47,224 nt of DNA from Escherichia phage ev099. Below the pieces are notes generated by a model. That model ran no database searches, was not told the DNA's origin, and saw nothing but the letters and a program-made list of their open reading frames with translations. Shown here piece by piece: positions 726 through 44,811 of this stretch (its first letter is position 1; every line of letters starts with the position of its first letter). The position numbers and the translations under genes are program-made. The stretch lies in sequence record NC_049953.1; one strand, given 5' to 3'.

Positions 726-4406
<3,681 letters not shown>

Positions 4407-4426
<20 letters not shown>

Positions 4427-5726
4427 TCTCCCGCATATTGCCAGTATGGCTTTTAATGAGCCGCTGATGCTTGAACCCGCCTATGCGCGGGTTTTCTTTT
4501 GTGCGCTTGCAGGCCAGCTTGGGATCAGCCGCCTGACGGATGCGGTGTCCGGCGACAGCCTGACTGCCCAGGAGGCACTCGCGACGCTGGCATTATCCGG
4601 TGATGATGACGGACCACGACAGGCCCGCAGTTATCAGGTCATGAACGGCATCGCCGTGCTGCCGGTGTCCGGCACGCTGGTCAGCCGGACGCGGGCGCTG
4701 CAGCCGTACTCGGGGATGACCGGTTACAACGGCATTATCGCCCGTCTGCAACAGGCTGCCAGCGACCCGATGGTGGACGGCATTCTGCTCGATATGGACA
4801 CGCCAGGCGGAATGGTGGCGGGGGCATTTGACTGCGCTGACATCATCGCCCGTGTGCGTGACATAAAACCGGTATGGGCGCTGGCCAACGACATGAACTG
4901 CAGTGCAGGTCAGCTGCTTGCCAGTGCCGCCTCCCGGCGTCTGGTCACGCAGACCGCCCGGACAGGCTCCATCGGCGTCATGATGGCTCACAGTAATTAC
5001 GGTGCTGCCCTGGAGAAACAGGGTGTGGAAATCACGCTGATTTACAGCGGCAGCCATAAGGTGGATGGCAATCCCTACAGCCATCTTCCGGATGACGTCC
5101 GGGAGACACTGCAGTCCCGGATGGACGCAACCCGCCAGATGTTTGCACAGAAGGTGTCGGCATATACCGGCCTGTCTGTGCAGGCTGTGCTGGATACCGA
5201 GGCTGCAGTGTACAGCGGTCAGGAGGCCATTGATGCCGGACTGGCTGATGAACTTGTTAACAGCACCGATGCGATCACCGTCATGCGTGATGCACTGGAT
5301 GCGCGTAAATCCCGTCTCTCAGGAGGGCGAATGACCAAAGAGACTCAATCAACAACTGTTTCAGCCACTGCTTCGCAGACTGACGTTACTGACGTGGTGC
5401 CAGCGACGGAGGGCGAAAACGCCAGCGCGGCGCAGCCGGACGTGAACGCGCAGATCACCGCTGCGGTTGCGGCAGAAAACAGCCGCATTATGGGGATCCT
5501 CAACTGTGAGGAGGCTCACGGACGCGAAGAACAGGCCCGCGTGCTGGCCGAAACCCCCGGTATGACCGTGGAAACGGCCCGCCGCATTCTGGCAGCTGCA
5601 CCACAGAGTGCACAGGCGCGCAGTGACACTGCGCTGGATCGTCTGATGCAGGGGGCACCGGCACCGCTGGCTGCAGGTAACCCGGCATCTGATGCCGTTA
5701 ACGATTTGCTGAACACACCAGTGTAA
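4407..5726 (+). CDS. C: capsid assembly protease / scaffold C
   Basis: GTG start at 4407 (MTAELRNLPHIASMAF...), 439 aa; the longer ORF-track start at 4260 lies inside B. Confidence 0.9.
5121..5726 (+). CDS. nu3: scaffolding protein Nu3 (in-frame internal start within C)
   Basis: ATG at 5121 in C frame, same stop; lambda arrangement. Confidence 0.75.
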   Translation: MDATRQMFAQKVSAYTGLSVQAVLDTEAAVYSGQEAIDAGLADELVNSTDAITVMRDALDARKSRLSGGRMTKETQSTTVSATASQTDVTDVVPATEGENASAAQPDVNAQITAAVAAENSRIMGILNCEEAHGREEQARVLAETPGMTVETARRILAAAPQSAQARSDTALDRLMQGAPAPLAAGNPASDAVNDLLNTPV

Positions 5727-6123: not shown

Positions 6124-7149
6124 ATGTCGATGTACACAACCGCCCAGCTGCTGGCGGCAAATGAGCAGAAATTTAAGTTTGATCCGCTGTTTCTGCGTCT
6201 CTTTTTCCGTGAGAGCTATCCCTTCACTACGGAGAAAGTCTATCTCTCACAAATTCCGGGACTGGTAAACATGGCGCTGTACGTTTCGCCGATTGTTTCC
6301 GGTGAGGTTATCCGTTCCCGTGGCGGCTCCACCTCTGAATTTACGCCGGGATATGTCAAACCCAAGCATGAAGTGAATCCGCAGATGACCCTGCGTCGCC
6401 TGCCGGATGAAGATCCGCAGAATCTGGCGGACCCGGCTTACCGCCGCCGTCGCATCATCCTGCAGAACATGCGTGACGAAGAGCTGGCCATTGCTCAGGT
6501 CGAAGAGATGCAGGCAGTTTCTGCCGTGCTCAAGGGCAAATACACCATGACCGGTGAAGCCTTCGATCCGGTTGAGGTGGATATGGGCCGCAGTGCGGCG
6601 AACAACATCACGCAGTCCGGCGGCACGGAGTGGAGCAAGCGTGACAAGTCCACGTATGACCCGACCGACGATATCGAAGCCTACGCGCTGAACGCCAGCG
6701 GCGTGGTGAATATCATCGTGTTTGACCCGAAAGGCTGGGCGCTGTTCCGTTCCTTCAAAGCCGTCAGGGAGAAGCTGGATACCCGTCGCGGCTCTCATTC
6801 CGAACTGGAGACAGCGGTAAAAGACCTGGGCAAAGCGGTGTCTTATAAGGGAATGTATGGCGATGTGGCCATCGTCGTGTATTCCGGACAGTACGTGGAA
6901 AACGGCGTCAAAAAGAACTTCCTGCCGGACAACACGATGGTGCTGGGTAACACTCATGCACGCGGTCTGCGCACCTATGGCTGTATTCAGGATGCGGATG
7001 CATTGAGTGAGGGTATTAATGCGTCTCCCCGTTATCCGAAAAACTGGAAGACATCCGGCGATCCGGCGCGAGAGTTCACCATGATTCAGTCAGCACCGCT
7101 GATGCTGCTGGCTGATCCTGATGAGTTCGTGTCCGTTCAACTGGCGTAA
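6124..7149 (+). CDS. E: major capsid protein
   Basis: 341 aa from MSMYTTAQLLAANEQ...; lambda gpE. Confidence 0.97.
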   Translation: MSMYTTAQLLAANEQKFKFDPLFLRLFFRESYPFTTEKVYLSQIPGLVNMALYVSPIVSGEVIRSRGGSTSEFTPGYVKPKHEVNPQMTLRRLPDEDPQNLADPAYRRRRIILQNMRDEELAIAQVEEMQAVSAVLKGKYTMTGEAFDPVEVDMGRSAANNITQSGGTEWSKRDKSTYDPTDDIEAYALNASGVVNIIVFDPKGWALFRSFKAVREKLDTRRGSHSELETAVKDLGKAVSYKGMYGDVAIVVYSGQYVENGVKKNFLPDNTMVLGNTHARGLRTYGCIQDADALSEGINASPRYPKNWKTSGDPAREFTMIQSAPLMLLADPDEFVSVQLA

Positions 7150-23123: not shown

Positions 23124-23704
23124 TGGCATTCAGAATGAGTGAACAACCACGGACCATAAAAATTTATAATCTGCTGGCCGGAACTAATGAATTTATTGGT
23201 GAAGGTGACGCATATATTCCGCCTCATACAGGTCTGCCAGCAAACAGTACCGATATTGCACCGCCAGATATTCCGGCTGGCTTTGTGGCTGTTTTCAACA
23301 GTGATGAGGCATCGTGGCATCTCGTTGAAGACCATCGGGGTAAAACGGTTTATGACGTAGCGTCAGGGGACGCGTTATTTATTTCTGAACTCGGTCCGTT
23401 ACCGGAAAATGTTACCTGGTTATCGCCGGAAGGGGAGTTTCAGAAGTGGAACGGCACAGCCTGGGTGAAGGATACGGAAGCAGAAAAACTGTTCCGGATC
23501 CGGGAGGCGGAAGAAACAAAAAACAGCCTGATGCAGGTAGCCAGTGAGCATATTGCGCCACTTCAGGATGCTGTAGATCTGGAAATCGCAACGGAGGAAG
23601 AAATCTCGTTGCTGGAAGCATGGAAGAAGTATCGGGTGTTGCTGAACCGTGTTAATACAACAACTGCACCGGATATTGAATGGCCAGTAGCACCTATAGG
23701 GTAA
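23123..23704 (+). CDS. tfa: tail fiber assembly protein
   Basis: 193 aa [24 protein letters not shown]...; TAATG overlap with stf stop as in lambda. Confidence 0.93.
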
Positions 23705-24563
23705 ATTCGTAATGATTACCTAAATACGTTATTCTTTTGCTCAAAAAGTGATTTTGCTATAGGTAGAGAGTATGTTCTTGGATTAAGAATAAAAAATCGC
23801 CATGAAAGAGCTTCATGGCGAGTACATAAACGTACAAAATATGATGAAAGTAGAGTGGCGTAAGCCACTATATTAAGATATGACAATAGCGAAGAAAAGT
23901 AAATAACATTTTATGGGCGTTTAATTGTTAATTATAAAAACTAGAGTGCCCGATATTGTTTATCTTGCTTTAAAATAATGTACTCAAACCAAATTTTTGA
24001 GCTAAAAGCTCAAATAATATAAATGCAATGATAATGTTTAATAAGACAATTAGCTTGCTTTGTATTTTCATTTCGGAATACTGTTAAGTAACTTTGATGA
24101 CCCTAACAATAGATCGGAATTTTCTTAGAGTCAATGGACACTGTTTTTGCTTGCAAAGCAAATGTTTTGGTGGTTATAAGTTGTCTTAATATAGTCACGC
24201 ATGCAACTTGTTCCATGCGGAGATTAAAGATTGGAATATAACGCGAAGATGGAATTAAATTACATTTGCAATAATCAATTTATTATTGCTCAATAATTAC
24301 CGATATTATTATTGTAAATTAATCATTAGAGTGCAAAAAGAAATGTAACGGCAAAATAAGAGGACGATAGCTGAGAAAAAAGCGTGCTTTCCCAATCTGG
24401 GGCAAATCACGTCTGAATGACACCTGAAAACAGGTGGTAGCCTCAAGAAGGCTTGGAATATTCTTCTTTAATGTTATGTAATTCATTGATTTTTCGTGTA
24501 CGATTTTAAGACATTTATTCCAAGAAAAATTTTTAACTCTTTGATTTTTCGACTCTGTATCAT

Positions 24564-24625
24564 CGGTCTCGAAAACCGGAGTAGGGGCAACTCTACCGGG
24601 GGTTCAAATCCCCCTCTCTCCGCCA
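24564..24625 (+). tRNA. partial tRNA-Ser (serU-like, anticodon CGA) 3' portion only, about 62 nt, ending CCA
   Basis: GGTCTCGAAAACCGGAGTAGGGGCAACTCTACCGGGGGTTCAAATCCCCCTCTCTCCGCCA matches the 3' two-thirds of E. coli tRNA-Ser(CGA); no acceptor/D-arm upstream. Confidence 0.8.
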
Positions 24626-25200
24626 CTTTATCAATGACTTATCTCCCGACTTCCCGCCTTGCTTTTCCTAAACAGAACAATCGTAGAATATTCTTGAAGG
24701 GTTAGATCGTCACTGTTTTCTGTTCGATACTGTGACATTCAGCACTTGATTCGCTATGGATCTAACAGGAAGGTTTTGAGCGAAAATTTGCAGTTATTCA
24801 GTCGTTTTCTTATCGGTCACCATTATTCTTTTAGACATTGATCCTACAAAGCTGCCGCAAAGTTGGTGGTGGGAACTGAAGTTGCGTAGAGAAGGGGTCA
24901 ATACCCGGAGGCAAACATGGGCTGGCAAAAGTGTAGCGGTATTAGGCGCAGCTATTTAGCCTAGTTATGTTTTATGAAAACTTAATATCATATAAGTGTC
25001 TTACTTATTGGCTGTAAATAAGTTTTTCCTAAGGAATTGTTTCTTGAGTATCATTTGTAACTGTAACGGAATTTATAATCCTTTGCTTTATTGTTACGGT
25101 ATTTTTTATCACACCCTATTTTTTATATGGTTTTTTATACTGAAGTTTGGCAAAGTGAACTTTATATGCATATACTTCATCCTGGTTTCAGTTAAGTTGG

Positions 25201-25953
25201 GTGGATGATATGGCAACTACATGTTCAGTTATATTGATTTTGGAGTCCTTTGATGTTTATTTCGGAAAAGAGAGTGTGTTTCTGGAGAGAGGTTCATCTG
25301 TACTTGTCGACTCTAGCTCTAGAGATTTTTTCCTGACATATCCTGAAAGAGTGATAGTGGCGGATTTTGGCGCTGAGTTTATTAGTCGCTATTTGAAAGC
25401 TAATAACTTAAGGGATATTTATGATTGTAGGGAATATCCATCTTATTTAAAAATAAACTTTGCTGACTTCAGTTTAATTAAAGGATTAATTAGTTGGGCT
25501 AATCACTGTGCTGAATACATAGAAATTTTTGATGAGTCTATTGCTTTTACATGTCTCTCTGCATTTTCTTCTGAAAAACAATTTGGAGTATTTCTGTTTG
25601 AATGTTTGAAAAGCACAGAGGCTAAAGTTAAAACGATTATTCATACGGATTTATCTGCACCATGGCGTCTTAAGGATATATCATCAAGATTATATCTCAG
25701 CGAAAGTTTACTAAAGAGGAAATTGAAAGACGAGGGGGTATCATTCAGTAAGATCATACTTGATGAGAGGATGCAAATGGCTGAATATTTACTCAGCACT
25801 CGTTGTTATCCTATTAGTAAAGTAGCTAAGGTCTGTGGTTATGCCAGTGTCTCATACTTTACTTATGTATTTAGACGTTATTTTGGTGTTTCTCCAAGTC
25901 AATACTCTCAGAGGAGTTCAGAAAGTAAAATTCTTACTCACCAGGGAATCTGA
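25201..25953 (+). CDS. AraC/XylS-family transcriptional regulator (GadX/AppY/EnvY-like), AT-rich
   Basis: 250 aa; C-terminal dual HTH signature ...LKDISSRLYLSESLLKRKLKDEGVSFSKII...VAKVCGYASVSYFTYVFRRYFGVSPSQY; true start may be ATG at 25210. Confidence 0.85.
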   Translation: MDDMATTCSVILILESFDVYFGKESVFLERGSSVLVDSSSRDFFLTYPERVIVADFGAEFISRYLKANNLRDIYDCREYPSYLKINFADFSLIKGLISWANHCAEYIEIFDESIAFTCLSAFSSEKQFGVFLFECLKSTEAKVKTIIHTDLSAPWRLKDISSRLYLSESLLKRKLKDEGVSFSKIILDERMQMAEYLLSTRCYPISKVAKVCGYASVSYFTYVFRRYFGVSPSQYSQRSSESKILTHQGI

Positions 25954-26425
25954 TCATTGTTCTTGCCCCCTTATTTCCAGACAGGGGGTGTATCTTAAGT
26001 TAACGTTACCCGCTGACGTCGATATTCTCGCGGAGAGCGATAACCCAACGCACTGTGCGGATGGTTTTCATTGTAATGTTCGATCGCCACTGCAAGATTA
26101 TGCAATGCCGTTCTTACATTCGGTTTCGGCATGAACGCGATGTAGTCTTCCTTCATCGTTTTCACGAACCTTTCTGCCATTCCATTACTCTGAGGACTGC
26201 TGATTGCCGTTGTGCAGGGCTCCAGATTCAACTCTCTGGCGAACTGCCATGTTTCATGCGCTCTATACGCTGAACCGTTATCTGTCAGCCACTGGATGGA
26301 CTGTTCCGGTACTTTATCGCCAAAGCGTTTTTCTATCGCTCCTAACATGACATCCTGCACTGTCGCTTTATCGTAACCTCCCGTGCTTGCGGCCCAGTCT
26401 ATGGCTTCACGATCGCAACAGTCCA
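25951..26425 (-). mobile_element. IS2-like insertion sequence remnant (3' part of orfB transposase plus terminal inverted repeat)
   Basis: Minus-strand ORF ...[27 protein letters not shown]...[14 protein letters not shown] matches IS2 InsD C-terminus; end sequence ...tctggaaataagggggcaagaacaatgatca resembles IS2 IRR. Confidence 0.8.
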
Positions 26426-26445
26426 GGGCGAACGTAACACGCAGT

Positions 26446-26665
26446 TTTGAATCGCCACGGGTTTAACAGACACCTCAGAGTCATTTAAGATGGCTTAAAG
26501 AGAGGTGCCCATGAGCGGTAAGCGTTATCCCGAAGAGTTTAAAACTGAAGCAGTCAAACAGGTTGTTGATCGCGGTTATTCTGTTGCCAGCGTTGCAACA
26601 CGTCTCGATATCACCACCCACAGCCTTTATGCCTGGATAAAGAAGTACGGTCCGGATTACTCCAC
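26446..26665 (+). mobile_element. IS3-family insertion sequence remnant (left end plus N-terminal orfA fragment)
   Basis: MSGKRYPEEFKTEAVKQVVDRGYSVASVATRLDITTHSLYAWIKKYGP is a typical IS3-family OrfA HTH N-terminus; reading frame degenerates after about 50 codons. Confidence 0.7.
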
Positions 26666-26819
26666 TTTTTCATCAAGCCAATCCGCCCACCACTGCATCA
26701 TTTCTCTGCGCTTATCGAGATACTGAGCGTGGTTGTAAATTCAGCTAACCCAGTGTGTTGACAAAAAATTAGCGCAAGAAGACAAAAATCACCTTGCGCT
26801 AATGCTCTGTCTCAGGTCA

Positions 26820-28510: not shown

Positions 28511-28704
28511 TTATCATCTCCATAAAAAAAACTCGCCGTAGCGAGTTCAGATAAAAGAAATCCCCGCGAGTGCGAGGATAGTTATTCATTGTCGATATTT
28601 ACATTTATTTCGAATATCTTTACTGGGTAATCGCCAAAGTCATATATTTTTTATTCTGTTTTATAAGCACTACCAAGTACTGCTTATTACAAATAAGAAA
28701 AGGC

Positions 28705-28736
28705 TGAAAAAAATATTTAAGGCCACAACTGTGGCC
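28705..28736 (-). terminator. rho-independent terminator downstream of the DUF1311 gene
   Basis: Minus strand: ggccacagttgtggcc hairpin followed by ttaaatattttttt. Confidence 0.7.
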
Positions 28737-28746
28737 CTAAATTTAC

Positions 28747-29445
28747 TTACGGCACTGCGTTAATCAGATTACAAATACCTCTTTTGGCAGGGTCTGAATT
28801 CAACTTCTGAAAATTGGCGTTCAACATAGCCGTGTGTAAGTGATTCTCAACCTCAAAGAATAGGTCGATTTTGCCCTCTTTGGCTGCCTGTTTCTTCCAA
28901 ATATTCACTTGGTCATCAGCAATACGACTAGCGCAAGTGAACAAGAACGAACTGCCTCTAGGAATGGATGTCGTGCTGTAATACTCACCATCTACTTCTA
29001 CATATTTAGCTCGGAATGACTCTAAGGTTAGCTTATTGCCGTTCTTGACCGACTTAGCTTCTGCCTTACTTGTATCTTCCTGCTCTTTAGAATGTTTCTG
29101 CGCCGACGTGGGTATGTCATTGGCCGCTGTTACGCTGACTGAACTCCCCAAACCTTTGAGGCCATTAATTTGGATAAGATAAGCCAGCTCCAGAGCCTTA
29201 TTATCAGTGAGTTTTCCACGCATATTTACCCACTGACGTTGAACCATTTTTAGGGTGTCTGCGTTCTCTGGGTTTCCTTTGAGGGCACTAGAATAGGCAG
29301 AGCTAAGCTGTTCGTCTAATTTTGACAGACGTTCGTTATCGCAGATTTTATGTTCGATTGCTGTCGAAGCCTTTTGGCAGTCAAAGCTGGCTGCAAATGC
29401 ACCCGGCGATGCCACTAACAATGATGCCAGTAGGATATTTTTCAT
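28747..29445 (-). CDS. secreted DUF1311 / LprI-like (lysozyme-inhibitor-like) domain protein; moron at the ea8.5 position
   Basis: Signal peptide MKNILLASLLVASPGAFA; then FDCQKASTAIEHKICDNERLSKLDEQLSSAYSSAL... matching the DUF1311 Cys/Leu pattern; GGAG RBS before ATG at 29445. Confidence 0.75.
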   Translation of the reverse strand: MKNILLASLLVASPGAFAASFDCQKASTAIEHKICDNERLSKLDEQLSSAYSSALKGNPENADTLKMVQRQWVNMRGKLTDNKALELAYLIQINGLKGLGSSVSVTAANDIPTSAQKHSKEQEDTSKAEAKSVKNGNKLTLESFRAKYVEVDGEYYSTTSIPRGSSFLFTCASRIADDQVNIWKKQAAKEGKIDLFFEVENHLHTAMLNANFQKLNSDPAKRGICNLINAVP

Positions 29446-29575
29446 ATTCACTCCATAAATACAAAAGCGCATTACTATAGCACTTAACCGATCGCTTATC
29501 TCGCCCGTTCGTCATTCTTATCTAACCAGAACATGCGACTGCCACAGCACATGTCGAGGATTGCTGCATGTCCAG

Positions 29576-30124
29576 TCACTGGTTGCCTCCTTTGCGAAGC
29601 TGGGCGGCTAACTCATCACATATGTGCGTCAAAGAGCAAAGTTTGATTGATGGATGTTCGCGCATCATCTCCACCCCCTGCGCCCGTACTTCAGCCAGGA
29701 AAGCATCGGTGGCTGGCATATTTCCTGTTGCCTTCATGGCCTCCAAAATAACCAGAACACCATCTCTCCCAATCTCCTCGCAGATAACCTCGGTGCTGTC
29801 GCCAACAACATCGCAGAATTCCTGAACTGCTTTACGAGCCAGCTCATTCTCCGCCGCCAGCGCCGAAAACTTCTCGTGTGCCAACTTAACAGCTGCATCA
29901 GCCTGCTTAATTGACTCAGTCGCTTTCTGGTGGTCTTCGGCCAGCCCTGCTAAATCAGCCTCCAGTTCGGCTAGGCGTTCATTTAATGCATCTCGTTCAT
30001 CCAGTAGAGCCAGCACAACCTGAGGTGTGACCTTCATACGAAATGCCAGCAATTTTTGAGGTGTTGCTACTGTTTCAATTGCTACTGCCGCCTCACGCAG
30101 TGCCTGAGAGTTAATTTCGCTCAC
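29576..30124 (-). CDS. ea22: Ea22 early protein
   Basis: 182-aa ORF in the lambda ea22 position. Confidence 0.85.
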   Translation of the reverse strand: MSEINSQALREAAVAIETVATPQKLLAFRMKVTPQVVLALLDERDALNERLAELEADLAGLAEDHQKATESIKQADAAVKLAHEKFSALAAENELARKAVQEFCDVVGDSTEVICEEIGRDGVLVILEAMKATGNMPATDAFLAEVRAQGVEMMREHPSIKLCSLTHICDELAAQLRKGGNQ

Positions 30125-30342
30125 TTCGAACCTCTCTGTTTACTGATAAGTTCCAGATCCTCCTGGCAACTTGCACAAGTCCGACAACCCTGAACGGCCA
30201 AGCGTCTTCGTTCATCTATCGGATCGCCACACTCACAACAATGAGTGGCAGATATAGCCTGGTGGTTCAGGCGGCGCATTTTTATTGCTGTGTTGCGCTG
30301 TAATTCTTCAATTTCTGATGCTGAATCAATGATGTCTGCCAT
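30121..30342 (-). CDS. TraR/DksA-like C4 zinc-finger protein (lambda Orf73)
   Basis: 73 aa with CCECGDPIDERRRLAVQGCRTCASC; ATGA overlap with ea22. Confidence 0.85.
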   Translation of the reverse strand: MADIIDSASEIEELQRNTAIKMRRLNHQAISATHCCECGDPIDERRRLAVQGCRTCASCQEDLELISKQRGSK

Positions 30343-30440
30343 CTTTCATTAATCCCTGAATTGTTGGTTAATACGCTTGAGGGTGAATGCGAATAATAAA
30401 AAAGGAGCCTGTAGCTCCCTGATGATTTTGCTTTTCATGT

Positions 30441-35180: not shown

Positions 35181-36038
35181 TTATCGTTTATTTCTTTGAT
35201 GTTTCTTTGCAGACTCAGCTTGAGTGTTTCCATACCTGCGTTTACCGCTATTGTTTTTTCCTCTAGGCTTGCCTTTTTTTCGATCTTCCCACCAGTCAGG
35301 TGCCGGGTCTGGCTCAACATGTAAAGCATCGGCAAGTCCTGATATCAAGCTGTATGACTGAACTCCATCAATGTGCTCTGACAGTGATGGGGTAACATTC
35401 TGTCTTAGTGGATCAAGAATAAAATCAATACCTTTAATTCTGGCGTGTTTGGCGGCAGGCACAAAGTCTGAGTCCCCAGCAACAAGGACAATTACATCAA
35501 CAAGTTTTTCATAAGCTAAAGTCGTGATATCCATCCCTAGCTTGATATCAACTTGTTTTTGTTTGATGTCATAGTAAAAATCATCATTTGTCAGTTCATC
35601 CCATTTTTTCGTTCCTTTCATCAGAGCATCAAGGGAGAATGTAGTTAGTTGCCATCGCTTATTATCAACAAGATTCCCTAATCTTAAGGCTGTTTTTCGA
35701 GTTTTTCTTAACTCTTCATGCAGCTCCGTTCTCAGAATATATGATTTTTCGAGTTTGAAATTCTTGCGACCAGGCGTCTTATTGCCAGGCTCAGGAAGTG
35801 GAAGGCGTGTTTGAATGTCGAGTGGTGGACAGTCATAGAAGTAAATTCTATAAAGCTCAAGCGGTTCCCTACGTTCTTGTGATTGACGTTTTCCATTAAG
35901 ATGGGAAAGAACCATTGACCATATTACTTTCATTATGCATTGCGCAGTCAGTTCATGCTCGGCGAAGTGTTTACGATGCGTAGCATGAACACGCTGCATG
36001 AAAAAACCCGCATCAATTAAAATTGCTGCTTTCTTCAT
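35181..36038 (-). CDS. NYN-domain (PIN-like) putative nuclease with basic C-terminal tail, occupying the rexA/rexB position
   Basis: 285 aa; KKAAILIDAGFF at N-terminus and DVIVLVAGDSDFVPAAK...GIDF core resemble NYN/LabA motifs; Lys/Arg-rich tail; located between cI and OL. Confidence 0.75.
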   Translation of the reverse strand: MKKAAILIDAGFFMQRVHATHRKHFAEHELTAQCIMKVIWSMVLSHLNGKRQSQERREPLELYRIYFYDCPPLDIQTRLPLPEPGNKTPGRKNFKLEKSYILRTELHEELRKTRKTALRLGNLVDNKRWQLTTFSLDALMKGTKKWDELTNDDFYYDIKQKQVDIKLGMDITTLAYEKLVDVIVLVAGDSDFVPAAKHARIKGIDFILDPLRQNVTPSLSEHIDGVQSYSLISGLADALHVEPDPAPDWWEDRKKGKPRGKNNSGKRRYGNTQAESAKKHQRNKR

Positions 36039-44098: not shown

Positions 44099-44314
44099 AT
44101 GAAATCCATGGATAAGTTAACAACGGGTGTCGCCTATGGCACCTCAGCAGGTAGTGCCGGTTACTGGTTTTTACAGCTGCTCGATAAAGTCACGCCCTCA
44201 CAGTGGGCAGCAATAGGTGTGCTGGGTAGCCTGGTATTTGGCCTGCTGACGTACCTGACAAACCTTTATTTCAAGATTAAAGAAGATAAGCGCAAGGCTG
44301 CGAGAGGTGAATAA
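44099..44314 (+). CDS. S: class II holin / pinholin (S21-type) with dual-start MKSM motif
   Basis: 71 aa [71 protein letters not shown]. Confidence 0.9.
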
Positions 44315-44811
44315 TGCCTCCATCATTACGAAAAGCCGTTGCTGCTGCTATTGGTGGCGGAGCAATTGCTATAGCATCAGTGTTAATTACTGGCCCAAGT
44401 GGTAACGATGGTCTGGAAGGTGTCAGCTACATACCATACAAAGATATTGTTGGTGTATGGACTGTATGTCACGGGCATACAGGAAAAGACATCATGCTCG
44501 GTAAAACGTATACCAAAGCAGAATGCAAAGCCCTCCTGAATAAAGACCTTGCCACGGTCGCCAGACAAATTAACCCGTACATCAAAGTCGATATACCGGA
44601 AACAATGCGCGGCGCTCTTTACTCATTCGTTTACAACGTGGGTGCTGGCAATTTCAGAACATCGACGCTTCTTCGCAAAATAAACCAGGGCGATATCAAA
44701 GGCGCATGTGATCAGCTACGTCGCTGGACATATGCTGGCGGTAAGCAATGGAAAGGTCTCATGACTCGTCGTGAGATTGAGCGTGAAATCTGTTTGTGGG
44801 GTCAGCAATGA
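44314..44811 (+). CDS. R: SAR endolysin (T4-lysozyme-like true lysozyme with N-terminal signal-anchor-release domain)
   Basis: 165 aa [44 protein letters not shown]...; TAATG overlap with holin. Confidence 0.9.

Follow-up and report, generated by a model that had tools for sequence, protein, structure and literature searches.

A predicted periplasmic two-domain DUF1311 protein encoded in the early-left region of Escherichia phage ev099

Gene and predicted product

Escherichia phage ev099 (NC_049953.1) was analyzed over a stretch of 47,224 nucleotides, hereafter called the window, which represents a lambdoid phage with lambda immunity and 12 non-lambda segments. At the position of ea8.5 in lambda, with orf55 on one side and an Ea22-like gene on the other, the minus strand contains an open reading frame (ORF; 28747..29472) that comprises 241 codons at full length and encodes a precursor of 232 amino acids when read from the ATG at 29445. 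The coding sequence (CDS; 28747..29445, minus strand, including the TAA stop codon at 28749-28747) is preceded by a Shine-Dalgarno sequence, GGAG (29451..29454, minus strand), located 5 nt before the ATG and present in the same form in SSU5, a phage-plasmid described below, and in three lambdoid contexts. The protein is identical to RefSeq entry WP_000789830.1, and the Prokaryotic Genome Annotation Pipeline (PGAP) selects the same ATG for the 100% identical gene in Escherichia coli prophages. An earlier note on this DNA, made from the sequence alone, had proposed this 232-residue minus-strand ORF with a ribosome-binding site of its own; the start is now confirmed by that site and by PGAP usage. 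RefSeq names the product of WP_000789830.1 'lysozyme inhibitor LprI family protein', and the gene has already been clustered as PHROG 4675 (unknown function). Literature searches with the accession, with LprI plus prophage or superinfection, and with SSU5 plus lysozyme inhibitor retrieved no functional study of the protein. The gene is real and strongly conserved, and its product is secreted and composed of two parts.

Residues 1-18 (MKNILLASLLVASPGAFA, followed by AS at the mature N-terminus; 29392..29445, minus strand) were assigned by rule-based analysis to a Sec signal peptide of the kind cleaved by signal peptidase I (SPase I). It contains a lysine at position 2, a hydrophobic run of nine residues (ILLASLLVA, mean Kyte-Doolittle value 2.97) and a cleavage site between SPGAFA and AS with alanine at positions -3 and -1 (A-x-A motif). 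A lipobox was not found in the protein, and the context of Cys23, SFDC, is not one. In the homologues the signal sequence is likewise located directly before SFDC, except that two distant ones have swapped in a lipoprotein signal (LTGC). The lipoprotein signals of these two proteins (P0060 and P0064) corroborate that the family works outside the cytoplasm. The lipoprotein-signal variants lack the SFDC motif, and at one locus (L009, 8001-8999) the gene of a lipoprotein variant is followed by one for an 84-residue TM2-domain protein. The cleavable signal peptide of the earlier note was thus supported by the rules for K2, core and A-x-A motif as well as by conservation in homologues, and the prediction that the protein is periplasmic and exported via a Sec/SPase I signal peptide is strongly supported.

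The N-terminal part of the mature protein (residues 19-100; 29146..29391, minus strand) is a DUF1311-like helical domain with the motif SFDCxKAxxxxExxIC, which includes Cys23 and Cys35, and a QRxW...R helix. The DUF1311 pattern that had been noticed by eye was recovered by the profile check, as PF07007 (LprI/DUF1311) matched residues 23-78 with 25.2 bits compared to a gathering threshold of 22 (E 2.2e-5). PF07007 was matched by 8 of the 11 family members, with a best E value of 4e-7. An AlphaFold2 model calculated from a shallow alignment was unusable (predicted local distance difference test score, pLDDT, of 47.7), and we therefore used a model obtained with distant members added to the alignment (overall pLDDT 69.6). 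In this model, residues 29-100 are predicted to be helical with a pLDDT of 77-88, and the fold agrees with a known DUF1311 structure. The DUF1311 protein PP0307 of Pseudomonas putida, of which the structure has been solved (PDB 3GI7), has a single domain and unknown function; the PDB sequence search did not link it with the phage protein. NCBIfam yielded sub-threshold matches only (CpoB, A1S_1983), PDB sequence searches with the protein and with the family profile yielded chance matches only (ORC6, myosin), a Foldseek search against the PDB gave no match with E < 3, and neither the protein nor the two distant relatives examined matched a defence system in PADLOC.

The domain is followed by a flexible linker of about 35 residues (101-136; 29038..29145, minus strand), which is rich in S, T, K, E, Q and P, varies in length and sequence in the alignments and is predicted to be disordered (pLDDT 22-29). 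The remainder (residues 137-232, about 95 amino acids; 28750..29037, minus strand) forms a C-terminal domain without database family that was delimited by the AlphaFold2 model, by conservation and by the ratio of nonsynonymous to synonymous substitution rates (dN/dS). The model of this domain consists of a short helix, a beta-hairpin (148-157) and three helices (166-230) with a pLDDT of 81-92. The earlier note had described an unrecognised C-terminal domain of 120 residues. It is correct that the C-terminal part has no Pfam match, which holds for every family member, but the 132 residues in question do not form one domain and consist of the linker and the fold of about 95 residues. An internal duplication relating the two domains was rejected by profile comparison (P 0.36).

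Comparison of the window gene with its allele in SSU5 (83% nucleotide identity) gave dN/dS values of 0.08 for the N-terminal domain, 1.14 for the linker, corresponding to neutral evolution, and 0.066 for the C-terminal domain. These values describe two selected domains joined by a free tether, and strong purifying selection on both domains is well supported by them. In the enteric members, G153, Y156, S157, T158, C171, D178, N181, W183, K184, A187, K189, F196, N209 and C225 of the C-terminal domain are invariant. When members from T4-like phages were added, C171, N209 and C225 alone remained invariant, and G153, S157, D178 and A187 were nearly so. Each domain probably contains one disulfide, C23-C35 and C171-C225, respectively, which would be formed by DsbA after export.

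Distribution of the family

A word-indexed protein search retrieved only close relatives (at least 65% identity), most of them encoded on contigs of Salmonella, Citrobacter, Enterobacter and Klebsiella that are about 110 kb long. These contigs are SSU5-type phage-plasmids, and gene 101 of SSU5, a recognised phage-plasmid (PMC7969092), is a homologue. In PLSDB, the gene was present on 126 plasmids of about 110 kb, 119 of which are non-mobilizable. More than 100 SSU5-type carriers were found in Enterobacter, Citrobacter and E. coli, to which the protein database adds Salmonella and Klebsiella. E. coli contains 108 chromosomal prophage copies and 17 plasmid copies; the lambdoid form occurs in 108 of 5,426 complete genomes of this species (about 2%), and at least 80% of the cassette, i.e., ribosome-binding site, CDS and terminator, in 124 of them. 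Of 25 listed genomes in which the cassette is 100% identical, 13 are of poultry origin (chicken, turkey, avian, avian pathogenic E. coli O78), a raw count that is uncorrected for sampling and clonality. The gene, for which the earlier note had also considered a lack of conservation, is conserved, as seen from the identical E. coli copies, the low dN/dS values and the existence of distant relatives.

A HMMER search with the C-terminal domain against 1.84 billion representative proteins gave 12 matches only, of which the genuine ones were a 230-residue protein of the same architecture (39% identity), fragments, a form from Yersinia enterocolitica and the lipoprotein forms. Two long repetitive proteins among the matches (P0059 and P0062, 943 and 1277 residues) were recognised as repeat-driven false positives on sequence inspection. 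The Yersinia homologue is encoded on a chromosomal island beside a large serine recombinase, and one of the lipoprotein homologues on an island with AlpA-type regulators. A further search with a profile including the T4-like sequences revealed no new members. In E. coli there are also truncated or chimeric derivatives (P0065 and P0066), one of 116 residues with the N-terminal domain only and the other of 119 residues, in which a foreign N-terminus is joined to the last 60 or so residues of the C-terminal domain. A conserved partner gene was considered and rejected: the 69-residue ORFs located upstream of the Yersinia and Logan homologues are mutually unrelated and have no Pfam match.

A result that we had not expected came from phages. 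When 50,697 phage genomes were searched by tblastn, 152 records matched, nearly all of them T4-like Straboviridae (Aeromonas 65, Escherichia/Krischvirus 47, Klebsiella 24); in 52 of the 152 the match covered at least 80% of the query. A Foldseek search against BFVD agreed with this result. Comparison by hhalign of the set from enteric mobile elements with the T4-like set gave a P value of 5e-24 for the N-terminal domains and of 2.2e-13 for the C-terminal domains (probability 98%, 85 columns), whereas all reversed and column-shuffled controls had P values of at least 0.08.

In Aes508, IME13, avDM3, SW69-9, Asfd_1, kv_tblp5 and Marfa, the homologue is located directly upstream of gene 56, which codes for dCTPase or for a nucleotide pyrophosphohydrolase in the equivalent place. 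UP87 has an intervening 53-residue ORF and an unannotated downstream gene, and in the Aeromonas phages CC2 and AP1 the homologue has another location, close to rnlB and inh. Aes508 and kv_tblp5 have the primase gene 61 further upstream of the homologue. T4 itself has dam at the position upstream of gene 56; the lambdoid cassette has also displaced a methyltransferase gene (see below), which is probably a coincidence.

In RB49-type phages, the same N-terminal module is linked to an unrelated, beta-rich C-terminal domain, suggesting that the N-terminal module is a carrier; on the basis of these comparisons, it seems to act as such for different C-terminal domains. RB49p262 (4001-4759 of the RB49 stretch) and its Krischvirus relatives share both the signal peptide and the DUF1311 module, and their C-terminal domain is bounded by two cysteines and has no Pfam match. 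Homology of the latter to the C-terminal domain described here was rejected (P 0.18). In summary, the members detected in this study are confined to phages and other mobile elements.

The cassette, its transcription signals and its origin

The gene is part of a block differing from lambda (28586..30079), which replaces lambda positions 29362-30351, i.e., ea8.5 and most of ea22. The earlier note had correctly placed the gene between xis/orf55 and ea22 at the site of ea8.5, and the comparison with lambda adds the loss of most of ea22. The GC content of the cassette is 33-46%, compared to about 50% in the flanks. The Ea22-like gene (29576-30124, minus strand; Pfam Ead_Ea22) encodes a protein of which only the first 45 residues resemble lambda Ea22 (53% identity), the rest representing a different allele. 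The DNA at its last codons (encoding KGGNQ before the stop) is a junction that recurs in other lambdoid prophages, where it is found at the 3' ends of upstream genes that are unrelated. On the downstream side, an AT-rich spacer (28586..28705, minus strand; 33-34% GC) is common to the lambdoid cassette copies and absent from lambda and SSU5.

The stretch in common with SSU5 extends from 28707 to 29514 and covers, besides the CDS, the terminator hairpin and an upstream part of 69 bp. The outermost 31 bp of the latter (29484..29514, minus strand) align to the end of SSU5 gene 100 (SSU5_100; ...EAVG and stop) and form a non-coding remnant of the 3' end of such a gene, with the blastn boundary at 29514 being the 5' edge of the SSU5-shared segment. 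The cassette thus arrived with a scrap of its former upstream neighbour. A second remnant, the first 27 codons of a methyltransferase gene (VTGHAAILDMCCGSRMFWLDKNDERAR and stop; 29496..29579, minus strand), begins with a GTG that overlaps the stop codon of the Ea22-like gene and is broken off where the SSU5-like sequence starts. An intact S-adenosylmethionine-dependent methyltransferase of 175 residues is encoded in the Stx2c phage LC727889 (1596-2123 of stretch L023), and PGAP calls the same remnant a partial methyltransferase in another prophage. The space of about 100 bp that the earlier note had seen upstream of the gene does exist, but it measures 130 bp and, being filled by the remnants of two genes, is a recombination scar.

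The lambdoid copies of the cassette are 95-100% identical to each other, and no intermediates to the 83% identical plasmid allele were found. The cassette is present in at least three lambdoid backbones at three attachment sites (ybhC, i.e., att lambda, thrW-proA and mdtA), and the ORF of 699 nt is annotated as intact in all three lambdoid backbones inspected. These comparisons strongly support the view that ribosome-binding site, CDS and terminator travel as a compact unit, that the unit passed from an SSU5-like source into the early-left region of lambdoid phages and that it entered by illegitimate recombination inside the methyltransferase gene. The direction of transfer, from an SSU5-like donor to a lambdoid phage in which the Ea22-like gene was followed by the methyltransferase gene, is probable.

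Four nucleotides after the stop codon, in agreement with the terminator reported earlier directly behind the gene, we found an intrinsic-terminator-like hairpin followed by AUUUUUUU (28706..28742, minus strand). It has a 12-bp stem with a GGCCAC core and an AGUU loop, and the hairpin itself (28742..28715) has a calculated dG of -17.6 kcal/mol (z -4.4), with 0 of 200 shuffled sequences folding as well. SSU5 contains a GGCCAC hairpin with a T-rich tail twice (5003-5040 and 7006-7065); the second copy, between genes 099 and 098, fits the downstream tail in the window better than the copy behind gene 101. Three more terminator-like hairpins are located on the minus strand between the cassette and xis (28579-28560, 28548-28529 and 28353-28334). 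Such hairpins number 6 in 2.4 kb, compared to an expectation of 2.3 +/- 1.4.

With respect to transcription initiation, a candidate extended -10 element (TGCTATAGT; 29474..29482, minus strand) is located 28 nt before the ATG, without a good -35 hexamer. It is kept in the lambdoid copies and in SSU5, where it reads TGATATAGT. The pattern TGNTATART occurs only once in the whole window when both strands are considered; since 1.99 occurrences are expected by chance in these 94 kb, the probability of a chance occurrence at this position is about 0.001. The last 45 nt before the ATG are about 93% conserved compared to 83% for the CDS, which is suggestive but no proof of a function. Since the gene is read in the direction of the pL operon, N-antitermination of pL transcripts would also lead to its expression. 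In a lambdoid prophage, the gene would probably be transcribed from its own weak extended -10 promoter, if the candidate is one, and additionally by N-antiterminated read-through from pL, while the terminator may shield xis and int from the constitutive transcript.

The cassette resembles the lambdoid morons, such as lambda bor and lom, in being a discrete insertion of lower GC content with its own ribosome-binding site and terminator and a candidate promoter. It differs from them in its co-orientation with pL, which makes it an ordinary delayed-early gene as well, and its relatives in virulent phages are not morons. Concerning the moron layout proposed in the earlier note, the insertion, the deviating GC content and the terminator were confirmed, whereas the promoter is represented by the candidate extended -10 element only.

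Elsewhere in the window, the lysis cassette (44099-44811, plus strand) is not lambda-like and encodes a P21-type holin (PF04971) and a 165-residue Phage_lysozyme protein (PF00959; 44314-44811), which has a hydrophobic N-terminal stretch and looks like a signal-anchor-release (SAR) endolysin of the R21 type; a link between this SAR-like endolysin and the secreted DUF1311 protein would be pure speculation. At the position of lambda rexAB next to cI (35181-36038, minus strand), there is a gene for a 285-residue NYN-domain protein (Pfam E 6.8e-9) with weak PADLOC matches to HEC-09 (2e-4) and NYN (1.4e-3), possibly an alternative gene for exclusion or defence. In place of the lambda b2 region (23686-26752), the window has DNA that includes an ORF for an AraC-family regulator (25201-25953, plus strand) and a transposase-core fragment (rve/rve_3; 25995-26360, minus strand).

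Possible function and rival explanations

All experimentally studied PF07007 proteins that we found in the literature concern enzymes cutting glycan strands. Together with the predicted periplasmic location, the exclusive carriage on phages and other mobile elements, the position in early regions of virulent phages and the tethered design, this led us to the reading that the protein binds or inhibits a peptidoglycan-cleaving enzyme in the periplasm and protects or conditions the wall of the cell that the phage occupies. We favour this statement, taken as a whole and including the anatomy, only tentatively and would put it somewhat short of an even chance; our confidence is high for the anatomy and low to moderate for the class of the target. 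The exported protein would act stoichiometrically in the periplasm; candidate targets are a lysozyme or transglycosylase activity brought in by a phage or by an effector of a type VI secretion system (T6SS), or a host lytic transglycosylase, and the outcome would be an exclusion- or immunity-type protection or conditioning of the wall of the occupied cell. The same two-domain protein is conserved in the early-gene region of virulent T4-like phages, which argues for a role in any phage-occupied cell and not in lysogens only. The clearest mechanistic precedent is Spackle of phage T4 (Sp, gp61.3), which inhibits the gp5 tail lysozyme in the periplasm and functions in superinfection exclusion. Spackle is also an early phage protein exported by a signal peptide, helical and cysteine-bearing. 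Homology to Spackle was rejected by profile comparison (P 0.04-0.6). A superinfection or envelope role would be our best guess.

Several observations weigh against the binder or inhibitor reading or the arguments leading to it. The Pfam family description of PF07007 specifies four cysteines, and the N-terminal domain of the phage protein has Cys23 and Cys35 only. It lacks the family's second pair; the remaining cysteines, 171 and 225, are part of the separate C-terminal domain. Conserved cysteines are stated for all PF07007 family members, with four in the Salmonella protein ScwA and its orthologues (PMC7933661). Furthermore, the PF07007 alignment spans only positions 1-70 of the 106 of the profile and thus not the whole model, and the T4-like relatives align to positions 1-71 or 1-72, likewise partially. 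The C-terminal domain has no specific structural match to any known inhibitor. An effector gene adjoining a homologue was not present in any context examined. The Klebsiella T4-like phage kv_tblp5 carries an annotated Spackle gene together with this gene, so that the protein is not simply a substitute for Spackle. ScwA, moreover, shows that a PF07007 protein need not inhibit its enzyme and may raise the level of a hydrolase. As to expression, a two-hexamer sigma-70 scan detected no promoter upstream of the gene, and the conservation of the upstream region could stem from recent transfer instead of function.

The annotation suggests a different idea, which was also the leading one of the earlier note, namely a classical lysozyme inhibitor (LprI/MliC/PliC-like) that guards lysogens from c-type lysozyme of the animal host and would be a virulence-type conversion factor. 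Pfam and PGAP use the name 'lysozyme inhibitor LprI family', the protein is predicted to be periplasmic and many clinical and poultry isolates of E. coli carry the gene. LprI of Mycobacterium tuberculosis (Rv1541c), after which PF07007 is named, indeed resembles the phage protein in having DUF1311 behind an export signal and a second domain at the C-terminus. However, LprI is a lipoprotein whose second domain is MliC (PF09864), whereas the phage protein has an SPase I signal, with its cleavage site between AFA and AS, and an unrelated C-terminal domain predicted to be helical and not a beta-barrel. As far as the account in PMC7933661 goes, the MliC domain of LprI is sufficient for lysozyme resistance and is the part with experimental support, while PF07007 alone has no experimental link to lysozyme inhibition; the bona fide inhibitors are described there as lipoproteins, and ScwA, a periplasmic PF07007 protein, does not protect from lysozyme, its effect being a higher level of the lytic transglycosylase MltD. 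When the window protein, 10 family members and 4 phage relatives were searched for MliC, none of them matched at E ≤ 10. Since inhibition by LprI is credited to MliC and MliC was not found here, the label 'lysozyme inhibitor' is not justified by the domain content, and the step from LprI fold to lysozyme inhibitor in the earlier note is not supported. By its domain content, the protein is not a lysozyme inhibitor of the classical MliC type, and as relatives occur in virulent Aeromonas and Klebsiella phages, for which resistance to animal lysozyme makes little sense, we regard the wider idea of a lysozyme inhibitor guarding lysogens as very unlikely. Even less credible, and close to negligible, is the assumption of a decaying hitch-hiker gene without function in the lambdoid phage. 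The gene does sit among gene remnants, and truncated or chimeric copies exist, but dN/dS is 0.07-0.08 in both domains compared to about 1.1 in the linker, the ORF is intact in three backbones and the cassette widespread in E. coli, and the family is old enough to be shared with T4-like phages.

The remaining alternatives place the protein in the envelope as well. It could be an orphan T6SS immunity protein carried by a phage, which protects the lysogen from the cell-wall effectors of competitors. The toxicity that the cell-wall T6SS effector Etse4 exerts in the periplasm is neutralised by Etsi4, a DUF1311 protein (PMC12981562), LprI-domain proteins with signal peptides, including orphans, are predicted immunity proteins beside lysozyme-like or LysM effectors in T6SS islands of Pantoea and Salmonella Dublin (PMC9796082, PMC8867033), and DUF1311 genes flank WHIX effectors (PMC12135965). 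These immunity proteins share with the phage protein the signal peptide, the periplasmic location and the association with wall-attacking enzymes. They adjoin their effector, however, whereas the neighbours here are the Ea22-like gene, the methyltransferase remnant, orf55, xis and int, and in other contexts early phage genes, recombinases and AlpA regulators. The phage protein has a linker and a conserved C-terminal domain in addition, the latter being undescribed in known immunity proteins, and SED_RS06230 of Salmonella Dublin, the one with a reported size (146 residues), is too small for a second domain of this kind. As a fixed place in virulent T4-like phages is also hard to explain by interbacterial competition, we consider this explanation decidedly unlikely. 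A modulator similar to ScwA (SL1344_0490) that conditions the wall by binding or stabilising a host lytic transglycosylase or another autolysin, without blocking the enzyme, might benefit lysis efficiency, entry or exit of DNA, or growth of the lysogen. The PF07007 protein ScwA, which is soluble, periplasmic, disulfide-stabilised and horizontally acquired, raises MltD and causes lysis when overproduced (PMC7933661), the phage protein is soluble, cysteine-bearing and predicted to be periplasmic, too, and the presence of the family in lytic and temperate phages would fit a role during infection. In ScwA, though, PF07007 is C-terminal (residues 185-271) with differently placed cysteines and the activity is a rise of MltD and not lysozyme inhibition; ScwA was not among the retrieved homologues, although no direct comparison was made, and nothing about the phage protein points to toxicity or interaction. 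We consider this explanation quite unlikely. An unlikely, though less far-fetched, alternative is another periplasmic or outer-membrane role apart from peptidoglycan hydrolases, with DUF1311 as scaffold and the C-terminal domain as the active part; a phage receptor might be masked or modified, for example, an envelope stress sensor bound or the timing of lysis influenced. The C-terminal domain is the best conserved and most widely shared part and survives where a lipid anchor replaces SFDC, and the RB49-type proteins suggest a carrier function of the N-terminal module; on the other hand, no specific alternative has positive support, and the studied relatives of the N-terminal domain all point to glycan-strand cleavers.

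A bolder version of the binder or inhibitor reading concerns the C-terminal domain itself. It might be a new class of phage periplasmic effector domain, common to T4-like phages, SSU5 phage-plasmids and lambdoid prophages and presented on a DUF1311 or lipid-anchored tether, that blocks penetration of the envelope by rival phages or T6SS attackers, e.g., by acting on a tail or effector muramidase of the GH24 type. We consider this rather improbable. If true, the domain would constitute a previously unrecognised system of superinfection exclusion or envelope immunity, analogous but unrelated to T4 Spackle.

In summary, the interpretation in the earlier note was borne out with respect to the gene, its secretion, DUF1311, ribosome-binding site, terminator, site and mobility, and failed at the step to a lysozyme inhibitor. 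The gene annotation itself was already known; what is new is that the label has been reinterpreted, a rare C-terminal domain defined, its link to T4-like phages found and the recombination scars recognised. For the present, the gene is solid but ordinary, an uncharacterised accessory gene of a phage rather than a proven lysogenic-conversion factor. The correction of the label avoids false inferences about virulence, as the name 'lysozyme inhibitor' is attached to the gene everywhere. To our knowledge, only few periplasmic phage proteins have known roles (Spackle, Imm, RI). If this protein turned out to protect the envelope or to act in exclusion, the group would gain a widespread member and DUF1311 a first function outside T6SS loci.

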